Source: Octopus vulgaris
Lineage: Eukaryota
Reading direction: 5' to 3'
Length of the DNA: 64,000 nucleotides
Assembly: GCA_951406725.2 (NCBI GenBank)
Contig: OX597823.1
Coordinates: forward strand, 65,410,001-65,474,000
Part shown: positions 780 through 63,790 of the stretch, piece after piece
Layout: every line of letters begins with the position of its first letter
Numbering within the stretch: position 1 is the stretch's first letter
Translations under genes and position numbers: made by a program
Notes under the pieces: model-generated
The model's input: only the letters and a program-made list of their open reading frames with translations
Told to the model about the DNA's origin: nothing
Database searches by the model: none

Positions 780-1103
780 TGGTAGTATACTGTCAACATA
801 ACGTGACAGTTCCGTAAGAAAATTACACCACCCTAAGAAAGCATCGATGCTTCCTGTCGGCTTTGACACATTTCCTGTGTCCTTATATTTGCTATCCTGT
901 ATTGTTGACGGGTAAGACCCAGAAACATTCATGTCTTCAGGTGTGAATCCTATTTGGTGGGGGCGCTTGCCTCCCCTTCGCAAATATAAGGACACAGGAT
1001 ATGTGTCAAAGCCGACTGGAAGCGTCGATGCTTCCTCGGGCTAAATTGCGGTGGTGTAATTCCCTTACAGGACTGTCACGTTATGTTGACAGTATACAAC
1101 CAC
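780..1103. mobile_element. PLE-like unit with ~115-bp inverted repeat (780-892 / 980-1103)
   Basis: Arms are reverse complements (GCAAATATAAGGACACAGG...ACAGTATAC); similar to the 27149-27385 unit; spacer holds a degenerate hammerhead. Confidence 0.65.
896..941 (+). ncRNA. Degenerate minimal hammerhead ribozyme motif
   Basis: cctgta-TTGTTGA-C-GGGT aag ACCC-A-GAAA-CATtcATG-TC-ttcagg; core mutated at two positions. Confidence 0.55.
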
Positions 1104-2905
1104 ACACACACACACACACACACTCTCTCTCTCTCTCTCTCTCTCTCTCTCTATATATATATATATATATATATAATTATTTAGTATTTTGTTTTTACTT
1201 TTTTGGTTTAAATATTTGTTCGTATTGTTAGAGTACACAGATACATACAACGACAGAAATGTAAGTAGAATATGACAGAAAGATAGATAGAAAGAAAGAT
1301 AGATAGATAATTCGATATGAAGTTAGGCAGATTTGTAAGTATGTATGTATGCATGTAGGTAGGTAGGCAGGTAGGTTTGTAGGTAAGTCGTTAGGTACAT
1401 AGCTAGACAGGTAGATTGATTTACTCTTTGATTGATAATTTTTTCTTCATTGCTACGTATGTGGACAATTACATCATCTCAAAAATCAAATGTTTCGGAA
1501 AGATATACAATTTAATCAAACAATATTAAAAATAATGCTAGTATTATTGTTATAATACATTATTTGCCACATGGCATCTTTAAAGATGTATGTAGCTCAA
1601 TTGATCTAGTATCCCCTGGTAGTTGCCTGGAAGTAATTGGCGCATTACCGCTCGTCACCAAAGCGAACGAATTAAAACTAAATTAGACGCCATTTATTTT
1701 GAATGCAGAATATAAATGACGTAACAATATAACTCAAGATTTTCCATCCTTAGTTCTTCAAATATTGCCATCACCTTCTTTCGAAGCTACAAAAACAAGA
1801 ACAGCAACAAAATCAGTGGTAGCAACCACCACCATCACCACCATCACCATCCTCACCACCACAACAACAGCAGTGTTATATTTGTTACATGTTTTGGTCA
1901 AAGTCTATTAATCTGTAAATCAATAATTAAAAATACTCTCGAATATGAAAGATCAAAACATATTTCTATTTATATTTCTAAATAAATCGGTTTGCAAGCA
2001 TCAAACAGAAGAATGCAAAATAATTTGTTTAAACAAAACACAGAATAATTGAAATAAGAAATAACTATAAAGCACAATCACTTTAAACTTATTTTCATAT
2101 AAATAGCAAAAGTTCTTAGGTTAGTGTCCGTTTGTTGTGTACTGATTTGAAATTCTGTAAATATTAAATGAGTACAGTGAATAGAACACTATTTCTACCT
2201 GTAGGTTTTGCTAGTGGAAAATAAATTAAAGTAGAGAAAAATTTATGAGCTCGCGCTGAAATAACATTCAACTGAGTGTAAGCGGACATGAAATTAATTT
2301 CCCTTTTCTTATCCCGACTTTTCGTTACCTTTCTCACAATCACGCTTTCTCTCACTTTCACTCTTTCTCGCTTGCTTTCTGTCTTTCTCATTCTGTATCT
2401 CTCTCTCTCTCTTTCTCTCTCTCTCTCTCTCTCTCTCTCTCTCTCTCTCTCTCTCTCTCTCTCTCTCTCCGGTATTTATTTTCCTATTCGTTTCTCATTT
2501 TATTTTGTGACCTTACTTCTCGTTAACTATTATTTACAGACGTATAACTAATGTCAAAGCGACCTTCTTATGCACAAAAGTTCCCGAGCCTTCCTTTTAA
2601 CAAATGTATATACAGTAATTCAATAAGCAATGTTGTTCTCCGAATAGTTTTCGCTTGTGAATAAATCGGAAAAGAAGAAAAAGAATAAAAGAAAACACCT
2701 TTCACAAATTCTTTCTTGGACGCTTTCACAAAACATTTGCAAATATACTGTCTCAATAGAAATATAAAAACATTGACGCGTACAGCTCAAGATTTATAGG
2801 AATATAGTTTCATAAACAAATATATACGCCCGCACACTCACAACAAACCGTTGGAAAAAAATACACCAACACACTAACAAAAGTAAACATACAAAAGTAA
2901 ACATA

Positions 2906-3885
2906 GGCATAGGAGCGGTGTGTGGTAAGTAGCTTGTTTACGAACCACATGGATCCGGGTTCAGTCCCACTGCGTGGCACCTTGAGCAAGTGTCTTCTAC
3001 TATAGCCCACGGGCCGACCAAAGCCTTGTGAGTGGATTTGGTAGACGGAAACTGAAAGAAGCCCGACGTATATATGTATATATATATATATATATATATA
3101 TATAAAACTCTAGTTGTGTGAGTATCTGTCCCCTTCGATTTAGATTCCTAACTCCTCCCACATTTTGCGGTGCAGTTTAACCAAATTCGGGTATCTTATA
3201 GTCGTGATTCATATCGAGCCCGTCTGGCTATTAGCGCGCGTCAACGATGAGTCTACGATTTTAAAAATAATTTAACATCATTTTTTATTCCATTTTAATG
3301 CATAATTTTTCGTGTGTCGATGGCGGCGGAGTTGGCGTCCACGCTCACAGCTGCACCTGTTTGCTTCTCCCCCTTCCCTCCCTCGTGAAGCTGTGGGGAA
3401 GGGAGTGTAAAGAAATCGACGTCATAATGCGTTGTGAAGGAAACCAGCGTTCTTTTAGAACAACGACTTCATGGCTTGAAGACACCAAAACAAAAATGGC
3501 TAAGAAAGCCCGAATTTATAAGGGTAGTAACTCTCTAAAAATGCTTATATAGTTATTTCCCTTACAAACCCGAGCAACGCCGGGTGATACTGCTAGTATA
3601 TATATATATACAATACAATATATATATATATATATATATACAATACAATATATATATATATATATATATGTCTCTGTGTGTGTGTTTGTGTGTCTGTGTT
3701 TGTCCCCCCAACATGCTGGTGTGTTTACGTGCCTGTAACTTAGCGGTTCGGCAAAAGAGACCGATAGAATAAGGACTAGGCTTACAAAGAATAAGTCCTG
3801 GGGTCGATTTGCTCGACTAAAGGTGGTGCTCCAGCATGGCCACAGTCAAATGACTGAAACAAGTAAAAGAGTAAAGAGAAAAGAG
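2906..3885 (+). mobile_element. tRNA-headed SINE (family A) split by a Helitron in its internal (TA)n
   Basis: A/B-box-like head (GGTTCAGTCCC), CCTTGAGCAAGT, tail GACTGAAACAAGTAAAAGAG; near-identical to copies at 4061 and 47274. Confidence 0.85.
3095..3596 (+). mobile_element. Non-autonomous Helitron
   Basis: 3' hairpin ACCCG-agcaacg-CCGGGT (3568-3585) then CTAG|T at 3593-3597; 5' end merges into (TA)n. Confidence 0.75.
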
Positions 3886-4060
3886 TATACAACAAAATTT
3901 TCAAAACGGTCAGTATAAAGAGTCGTTCTCACTGGACGTATACATACTACATAACTTTGTGAAGTACAGATACACAATAAAAAGAACGCAAACAAAACGG
4001 GAATTTGAGAAAACGCCTGCGACAAAATTCAAATATAGTGAAAGTAATTTTGATTTTATT

Positions 4061-61679: not shown

Positions 61680-61970
61680 GGTTTCAAAGTTTGCCACAAG
61701 GGCAGAGATTTCGAGGGAGGAGATGAGTGGATTACATCGACGCAGTGCTCAACTGGTACTTATTTTATAGACACCGAAAGGACGAAACCAAAGTCGCCCT
61801 CGGAACGTAGCGACGGGTGAAATACGGCAAAGCATTTCCTCCGGTGTGCTAACGATTCTCTCATCAAATAATCATACAGGCAACCCAGACACATATATGT
61901 GGGAAGCAGCTACGAAAGCAGGGTCAGGAAAAGAAAAACGCCATTTCACTGATTCTGCCAATAGACCATC
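61680..61970 (-). mobile_element. SINE family B interrupted by a 91-bp insert
   Basis: Matches 21538-21760; GATTCT at 61854-61859 and 61951-61956 flanks the insert. Confidence 0.7.
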
Positions 61971-63509
61971 TTTTAATGATAATTATGGTAATGTTGACTT
62001 ATTTAACAATTTTACAAAATATAATTGATGATGCTGACCTCGAAAATGTCAACGATGATTACGACTGTTACGATAATGACGACGAGTATGATTATTATGA
62101 GGTACAATATTTCTAAATTTAACTATCTAAACAGTTTAAATTATATTTGGCATCCGAAATGATTTTAACAAACTATTTGAAGGATATGATTTGAATGCAA
62201 TATTTATTCTTGCAAGTTTCCTCTCATTTATCTCAATTTATTTGTTGTATGTTTTTCTTCTATTTTTTAATGAATTCCGCATCTGCAAAATTAATTGAAC
62301 ATTTCAAGTTGTCTGGAAGATTCAGGGATAACTGAAGATTTTTGCTTTTATCGAACAGGAATGTCTTTCCTTCTATTTCATACAAACACGAAAAGTCACA
62401 CATTAAAACGTTCTGACACGCACACAGACACATAATATTAGACACACAAATGTACATATAGTGGCGTCAATGTTCCTTCCTACATTCTTCTTCTTTGTTA
62501 TATATTATATGATTTCTACAAGAAGTAAAAACCAAAAAATTCTCGACAGAAGTTAAATTTTTTATAAGTCGATCGATTTTCTGTGCGTGATGCCAGAATT
62601 TAGTCGTAACTGTTCTCTTAACTGTTTGCACAAACACACACACTGTTAATAAATACACGTGCAGAAGCACGGTAAGAACATAGACATTCCTTATTAATTA
62701 CAGAAACACATACTCACACACACAAACGCATATTTATAAAATTCATAAAGATAGATAAACAGACAGACAGACAAACAGACAGACAGACGGATATATATAT
62801 ATATATATATATATATATATATATATATAAAATATATTTGTTGATAGTCACTTCAAAGTTCTGCCCGAGAAATTCTCTGAAAATTGAAATACATTGTCAA
62901 TAAAGATATAATAAAATCTAGACACCATGCAAGTATTGAGTTCTTTCGATAGTCATAATGAAAACACATGCAACATTGGGGGTGTTGTCGTGCATATGTG
63001 AGTAGGTTTATATATGTATACATACATGCATGTAAGTATATATATATATATATACATACATATAGATAGATATATATAAATATATATGTATATATATATG
63101 TTTGTATGTATATATGCATATATATCTGTGTGTGTTCCTTTTTCTCTCTTTCCTTTCTTTCGTTCCCCCTCCTTGCTCAGTATATGAGAATTGCTACATA
63201 GATGAATTTTAGCTTGCGTGCGAGACGGTTTGCGTGAATATATGTACACATGCTTTTATGTGTATATTTAGATTCATATTCATACGTATGTATATGTATG
63301 TATGGCGTTTACGCGCATCCTTTTGTGTATGTTGATATATATATGTGGATTTTAATATAAATATGTATTGCAGTATTTATAACAGGTTTAATTTCTATGC
63401 ATTAATTTGTACTGTCTTCATTAACGGCAATAAGTTTTTTCCTCGGTTTTTTCCTCGGATTTTATAATTTTTATAATTTTTATAAGTTTTTTTATATATA
63501 TATACATAT

Positions 63510-63790
63510 ATTTTTGACCTTTTTTTTATCGCTCGAAGATTGACCGTTTTTTCTAAAGGGCCAATCAAACAAGTCCATTTCTTTTTAAAGGTGTAGCGTT
63601 TGTAAGAGTATAGATTGAATTAATATATAAGTTCCATTCTAGCAAAAACTGTCTGATGAACGGCAACGAGAAACTCAGAGTAACAGATTTTGTTGAATTT
63701 TCTGCTGCTTAAAATAAAGCATATTACTCTACCACTGGTATTTGAGTACTCTTTTTTCCACCTTGTTTCACATTTATGTGTTTACTCCGG
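63510..63790 (+). mobile_element. Short non-autonomous PLE-like / retrozyme-like unit between (TA)n tracts
   Basis: ~280 bp, no ORF, contains a well-formed hammerhead. Confidence 0.65.
63641..63694 (+). ncRNA. Minimal type-I hammerhead ribozyme motif, canonical core, GUA site
   Basis: AGCAAAA.A.CTGT-CTGATGA-A-CG gcaa CG-A-GAAA-CTCaGAG-TA-ACAG.A.TTTTGTT. Confidence 0.8.

Follow-up and report, generated by a model that had tools for sequence, protein, structure and literature searches.

Does a stretch of octopus DNA that is crowded with hammerhead ribozyme motifs hold a new kind of small self-cleaving retroelement, or the debris of a known one? The question is raised by a 64,000-nt stretch of the Octopus vulgaris genome (assembly GCA_951406725.2, contig OX597823.1, forward-strand positions 65,410,001–65,474,000; the whole of it is called the window here), in which a preliminary description had recognized about eleven hammerheads and had proposed that the apparent filler between microsatellites was a large, multi-family, retrozyme-like system mobilized by Penelope-like elements (PLEs). 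Our analysis indicates that the eleven motifs are probably the hammerhead-bearing 3′ ends (pseudo-long terminal repeats, pLTRs) of several PLE families, present as 5′-truncated stubs that are often inverted or duplicated and about half of which have decayed. Most likely the arrangement is one already known, the PLE tail stubs described in 2014 in other animals, and not a new short circular-RNA system.

A hammerhead-like type-I layout was found at all 11 locations, partly on the minus strand. A core was accepted where it read C3-U4-G5-A6-N7-G8-A9 ... G12-A13-A14-A15 ... U16-H17 or was a known tolerated variant of this. Naming the sites by core position and strand, we scored six as well formed (19876−, 27343−, 32248+, 56103+, 56776+ and 63653+) and five as broken in the core or a helix (902+, 29009−, 39773+, 46927+ and 55944−). 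Two of the well-formed sites have the consensus core, three carry U4C, and one combines a U3:A8 core with one extra A. The core is broken at 902, 29009, 39773 and 46927, and 55944 retains a U4C core although its palindrome is gone. The short palindromic stem III, earlier ascribed to most of the motifs, is present at all six well-formed sites, absent at 46927 and broken at 55944. Pairwise alignment placed the 11 sites in nine families, in agreement with the proposed multi-family picture, with 902 in the family of 27343 and 55944 in that of 56103. The top-scoring hammerhead was 27343, which has a 6-bp stem I, a 4-bp stem II and a 2-bp stem III. A minus-strand reading of the motif at 46915 was tried and rejected for its poor helices; the plus-strand reading with a G12A change fits better.

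The hammerhead motifs are real. When the window was compared with 200 dinucleotide shuffles made in 500-nt blocks, a strict search (core intact or with U4C or U3:A8, helices I and II formed, helix III palindromic) gave five matches (19876−, 27343−, 32248+, 56103+ and 63653+), where the shuffles averaged 0.065 and never exceeded 2, and a relaxed search gave 12 against a mean of 2.36 and a maximum of 8; the thresholds were chosen after the sites had been seen. A comparison with shuffled sequence was among the checks named in the preliminary description, and within the window its outcome is favourable. A scored scan added 56776+ and found five matches with a score of at least 24, against 0.04 per shuffle (177 shuffles). 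The sites 902, 29009, 39773 and 46927 fell under the lowest score listed in that scan. Two of the broken sites are tied by homology to well-formed copies, 902 with an alignment score of 67.5 (shuffled maximum 30.5) and 55944 with one of 198 (shuffled maximum 39.5). For 29009, 39773 and 46927 the identification is by architecture only, and there could be a chance match among them.

The link to PLEs, also part of the earlier proposal, is borne out at 19876. This hammerhead lies in the 3′ untranslated region of a 5′-truncated PLE frame, 500 nt past the stop codon, which means that the carrier units are not all non-coding as had been supposed. The GIY-YIG endonuclease (EN) domain of the frame was recognized by Pfam (PF01541, E 3.5e-6), and the frame is 61% identical to full-length PLE proteins having both reverse transcriptase (RT) and EN. 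In a near-length search the highest identity, and the only named match, was to a protein of Octopus sinensis (77%, across 43% of the query). A GIY-YIG domain at the end of a frame upstream of a hammerhead-bearing pLTR was found at 19876 only. The same architecture recurs in 72 related PLE loci taken from a metagenome scan (best 80 of 143 matches), where the strict search, its length limits slightly widened, found 19 motifs. Eighteen of these are on the sense strand, and 13 sit 55–318 nt past the end of the protein match. The CG, CCGG and CTGCAG loops and the U3:A8 core are common to these motifs and the window sites, and at one locus there is an inverted hammerhead pair like 55944/56103. By blastn, only low-complexity DNA and one endonuclease stretch matched between the window and these 72 loci. 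Neither a single-protein metagenome scan nor an alignment scan of prokaryote genomes gave further loci. Judged from its Cys linker alone, in a window without a PLE RT, the element at 19876 may belong to the Neptune clade.

The surroundings of the motifs also resemble those of PLE insertions, for which 5′ truncation, partial tandems, adjacent inverted copies and a bias to microsatellites are described as signatures in the text of PMC8557442. All of these occur in the window, which has 34% GC and 117 tandem-repeat rows, mostly microsatellites. A (TA)n tract lies at most 350 nt downstream of 8 of the 11 motifs, compared with 24% of random places (P ~0.001, with the 350-nt cut-off picked afterwards), which upholds the reported proximity to (TA)n. 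The reported partial repeats were likewise confirmed by alignment: inverted partial copies adjoin 902, 32248, 39773 and 55944/56103, and direct terminal repeats are found at 32248 (124 bp, 538 bp apart) and 46927 (88 bp, 474 bp apart). The insertion around 32248 is composed of a 71-bp inverted piece (31794–31864), a 124-bp copy of the 3′ end (31863–31986) and a long copy running to 32524; the repeats at 46927 enclose the motif; and the 3′ end of the stub at 39773 has an inverted partial copy at 38850–38959. With boundaries set by us, the hammerhead units cover 5,461 of the 64,000 bases (~8.5%). They are therefore a small part of the filler, contrary to what had been proposed, and more of it comes from other repeat families (up to 8 copies, none with a motif match) and from remnants of long interspersed nuclear elements. 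The coordinates are collected in Table 1.

Table 1. Hammerhead-bearing units and the PLE frame in the window (positions are those of the window; names of motifs are core positions)
Feature	Position	Strand	Description
Fold-back insertion	779..1103	+	Arms ~779-893 and 981-1103 flank decayed hammerhead 896-941 (core 902; C3U, A6U)
Hammerhead 19876	19837..19881	-	U4C; 5-bp stem I, 4-bp stem II, palindrome GTAC; predicted cut after UA, 19842
5′-truncated PLE frame	20376..21038	-	Cys linker and GIY-YIG endonuclease, 220 codons without a stop; ends near (TA)n at 21060
Hammerhead 27343 in 243-bp solo unit	27143..27385, motif 27305-27349	-	U4C, palindrome CTGCAG; flanked by microsatellites
Decayed hammerhead-like motif 29009	28971..29012	-	G5U, A6C, CG palindrome; below listed scores
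Complex insertion, hammerhead 32248	31794..32524, motif 32242-32309	+	Consensus core, CGCG palindrome; high-copy family
Stub, hammerhead-like motif 39773	39531..39902, motif 39770-39804	+	A6U, 4-bp stem II, CG palindrome, weak 2-bp stem I
Unit with decayed hammerhead 46927	46658..47217, motif 46915-46998	+	G12A, long stem I, no palindrome
Head-to-head inverted pair, one family	55842..56203	.	55902-55947 (minus, broken palindrome) and 56100-56145 (plus, well formed, CAGCTG); both U4C
Hammerhead 56776	56770..56812	+	U3:A8 covariant core, extra A after GAAA, 4-bp stem II, CCGG, 6-bp stem I; adjoins (TA)n
Hammerhead 63653	63641..63694	+	Consensus core, 2-bp stem II, 3-bp stem III, CTCAGAG, long stem I; (TA)n 138 nt downstream

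From what is known of PLE biology, such stubs could arise as follows. The GIY-YIG enzyme of a PLE would nick a (TA)n tract, and reverse transcription would begin at the 3′ end of the element RNA and usually stop, or switch template, within a few hundred bases. Most insertions would thus retain just the tail, which is where the hammerhead sits. It is predicted that in a source element a pair of tandem hammerheads, joined through the palindromic stem III, could cleave as a dimer, which would free the element RNA. Calculated energies agree with dimer cleavage in tandem pLTRs: intramolecular closure of stem III is predicted to gain 0.7 kcal/mol at 63653 and to cost 0.4 to 5.4 kcal/mol at the other five well-formed sites, and self-pairing of the palindromes at the six sites comes to −4.8 to −11.1 kcal/mol. 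Dimer cleavage in tandem pLTRs is reported to be low in vitro in the text of PMC4209133, and PLE hammerhead dimers are attributed to Lunse et al., as cited in PMC6765202. The dispersed stubs are without a well-formed partner on the same strand, and an inverted pair cannot dimerize within one transcript; therefore most of them are predicted to be inactive passengers. The likeliest monomer cutters are predicted to be 63653 and 27343.

Several results weigh against reading all eleven motifs as PLE tails. Rfam listed no hammerhead among 150 of its 202 matches, nor in four focused scans. A covariance model built from 13 of the 19 hammerheads of the related PLE loci, which covaried as expected and is insensitive, found only 56776 significant (E 0.00045) and gave 19876 an E of 7. 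None of the 11 sites folds more stably than its shuffles (z 0.23 to −1.57), as is expected because the motifs are minimal. The silence of Rfam and the unremarkable z-scores are what would be seen if the motifs were chance matches in AT-rich, repeat-rich DNA; the relaxed search yields 2.4 matches in each shuffle, and 29009, 39773 and 46927 score within chance and are without a second full copy in the window. Nevertheless, we regard chance as extremely improbable for the set and as already refuted for the six well-formed sites, given the excess of strict and of high-scoring matches, the sense-strand placement behind the PLE frame and in the related loci, and the majority letters of the 32248 family (below), which restore both helices.

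Only one of the 11 sites has a coding link, and tblastn and hidden Markov model searches with 15 PLE proteins of one clade revealed no PLE protein remnant upstream of the remaining ten. There is no frame between the terminal repeats of 32248 or between those of 46927, and these repeats are the pattern that would be expected of a more-than-unit copy of a short RNA. Such observations suit a different origin, in which several of the families are short non-autonomous elements (retrozyme monomers or other PLE parasites of 240–540 nt). The hammerhead would cut their RNA, which may then be circularized, and PLE enzymes would insert it, so that the window would contain dispersed monomers and 1.2-mers. 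The spacing of the terminal repeats (538 bp at 32248, 474 bp at 46927) is in line with this, as are a 58-bp hammerhead-like repeat with copies 922 bp apart at 24604 and 25526, the ten sites without a nearby PLE protein remnant, and the canonical type-I helix sizes (6/4/2 bp) of 27343 within a 243-bp unit; retrozyme families are also described as having many monomer copies and as deriving from pLTRs in the text of a preprint (bioRxiv 10.64898/2026.07.22.740005). Against it, retrozymes are defined, in the same preprint and in PMC7229834, by tandem units of which two or more in succession carry a hammerhead; in the window no well-formed hammerheads lie in consecutive tandem units, and none of the tandem arrays has a period longer than 93 bp. 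Ahead of the 32248 motif there are 260 nt, which is within the distances between open reading frame and hammerhead seen in PLEs. Two truncated PLE copies in tandem yield equal terminal repeats, according to the text of PMC8557442. The terminal redundancy at 32248 and 46927 makes short non-autonomous units conceivable for those families, and in all such units may account for two or three; we find this origin for several families unlikely, although it is the alternative that we take most seriously.

The 32248 family, one of the nine, was followed further in four sequencing runs mapped as contigs onto 31786–32534 at 80% likeness. Run X18, which is DNA by guess and, being contigs, cannot reveal RNA ends, gave 1,041 pieces, and the family is therefore high-copy. 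Its summed depth, which is not the same as copy number, fell from 64,163 over the upstream 3′-end copy to 33,262 at the hammerhead and on to 8,249, 769 and 188 towards the 5′ side, a gradient that the 80% cut-off may steepen. Cover thus drops stepwise, without a plateau leading to a fixed 5′ end. Fifteen of the 17 joints comprised nine opposite-strand joints, four skips and two backward joints; each was seen in one contig per run and at a place of its own, and both backward joints enter the duplicated 3′ end. No end-to-start junction recurred among the joints listed. Repeats were skipped at 31995–32028, beside the junction, so the low cover at 32011–32035 proves nothing; both this and the cut-off detract from the case for PLE tails. 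The loose 3′ ends of the family lead into (TA)n. The majority letters at 32258 (4,999 of a depth of 5,207) and 32308 (24,808 of 30,475) restore pairs in stem II and stem I, respectively; therefore the copy in the window has decayed from a better ribozyme. No core differences were seen among 40 of the 126 rows. Depth, joints and majority letters fit an element whose ribozyme is intact and whose insertions are 5′-truncated and variably inverted. With the family biased to its 3′ end and variably inverted, and with no consecutive well-formed units in the window, the proposal of a large retrozyme-like system was not supported, and PLE tails remain our preferred explanation. Two runs guessed to be RNA contributed 33 and 5 pieces to the 32248 unit and were used neither for nor against expression.

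Alternatively, the host might retain some dispersed copies as functional signals for self-cleavage of transcripts. Six copies are still well formed, and 63653 and 27343 are predicted to be able to close a 2–3 bp stem III on their own. Set against this, five of the 11 sites are broken, pairs kept in the 32248 family are missing from the window copy, and the window has no identified host gene, so that we consider retention by the host very unlikely, if less so than chance.

U4C occurs in three unrelated families (19876, 27343 and 55944/56103) and is shared by both copies of the inverted pair. It was found in none of the 26 scored matches in the related PLE loci and in none of 44 rows of the 2014 alignment (PMC4209133). 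Both U4C and U3:A8 are natural variants, U4C having been reported for a viroid (PMC3088659). The change appears to create a CpG, opposite to the usual direction of decay. It is conceivable, and at present we think it rather doubtful, that octopus genomes are among those with the densest animal hammerhead loads, spread by several PLE lineages that share U4C and including short non-autonomous units and a Pol III-driven, tRNA-headed short interspersed nuclear element (SINE) that has taken over its hammerhead tail from a PLE and is mobilized by Penelope machinery.

The tRNA-like sequence concerned is a head with A and B boxes at 29150–29225 (minus; box match 29214). It lies upstream of the 29009 motif, with which it shares its strand, and an (AAT)n tract separates it from the decayed hammerhead tail (28971–29070). 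Only two matches to A plus B boxes were found in the window, 29214− and a tRNA gene at 42251–42323 (minus; 68.6 bits with Rfam, Phe by ARAGORN). The head had no Rfam tRNA match and was absent from ARAGORN calls at relaxed scores of 80–100; when it was aligned to the tRNA of the window, 6 of 500 shuffles scored as high. Neither of two protein searches spanning the join between head and hammerhead gave a match. Head and tail could be a hammerhead-bearing SINE or chance neighbours. SINE-like elements of Schistosoma that combine a promoter with a hammerhead (described in PMC6765202) offer a likeness in the tRNA-like head upstream of 29009, whereas here there is one locus, with a decayed motif and an intervening (AAT)n tract.

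The window sites are close to the minimal hammerheads of PLE pLTRs (Cervera and de la Peña 2014, PMC4209133) in their type-I topology, the extra base after A9, the palindromic helix III, the U3:A8 variant, the many families per genome and the prevalence of single motifs with some opposite-strand pairs. Minimal hammerheads are there described as massively present and heterogeneous, and most are said to be single and ‘probably related to truncated PLEs’, with opposite-strand pairs 100–700 bp apart. What differs is the cephalopod host, U4C in three families and the high local density. The mollusc examples in the supplement of that paper are Lottia and Crassostrea, and ‘octopus’ gave no match in the one supplement file searched. 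The literature searched took in few subscription papers and no preprint supplements; it led only to PMC8557442 and a twister paper, and we found no account of hammerheads in cephalopods in it. Penelope and Dong-R4 are named among the abundant cephalopod repeat families in PMC8967140. The canonical Neptune-like PLEs with a C-terminal EN (Craig et al. 2021, PMC8557442) share the Cys-rich linker before GIY-YIG, truncation, partial tandems, inverted copies and microsatellite bias, whereas the window has no full-length copy and a protein is associated with just one of its nine families. Non-LTR retrozymes (Cervera and de la Peña 2020, PMC7229834; Li, Clavereau and Pollet 2026 preprint) share the short, low-GC, non-coding stretches, the type-I hammerheads and the relationship to PLEs. 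Although the helix sizes of 27343 are canonical for them, the window lacks tandem hammerhead units and family 32248 behaves as truncated insertions.

These observations extend the known association of PLEs and hammerheads to a cephalopod genome, and short anonymous stretches between (TA)n tracts become annotatable as PLE tails. The local density is about one well-formed motif per 11–13 kb, in a single selected window. In the axolotl, 126,247 motifs (PMC7229834) in 28.21 Gbp (bioRxiv 10.64898/2026.07.22.740005) amount to ~1 per 220 kb. If the local density held genome-wide, the octopus count would be far above the axolotl density, which one chosen window cannot show; a genome so dense would be a good one in which to study in vivo cutting by PLE hammerheads and the tolerance of U4C.

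Several further features were noted. Stem I of 27343 can be extended to a long imperfect hairpin of ~40 bp (27255–27385, minus; z −1.67), which may be functional or an old inversion. The direct repeat at 24604–24664 and 25526–25588 (plus) resembles a decayed U3:A8 hammerhead pair, its first copy scoring 20. Another possible decayed hammerhead lies at 44456–44507 (plus), with a U3:A8 core, a 5-bp stem II, a GCGC palindrome and A14G, and matches the covariance model weakly (E 4.2). A weak second PLE endonuclease remnant was seen at 23533–23583 (minus; tblastn E 0.5) together with an inverted piece (23654–23727/24098–24170), and a decayed hammerhead-like motif at 22626 (minus) sits ~900 nt downstream of that remnant, just before (TA)n. 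Fold-back units of 160–200 bp near microsatellites, without a hammerhead match, occupy 22223–22383, 32570–32766 and 40018–40215. Broken non-LTR retrotransposon frames (RT and zinc finger) lie among (TTA)n tracts at 8912–11705 (minus), accompanied by at least four related stubs of 300–350 bp beside (TTA)n; these frames are likely of Dong/R4-type. Finally, a 135-codon open frame without a Pfam match leaves the window at 1–405 (minus), and the region upstream of it has a 14-nt word (near 672) in common with an arm of the 779–1103 unit.

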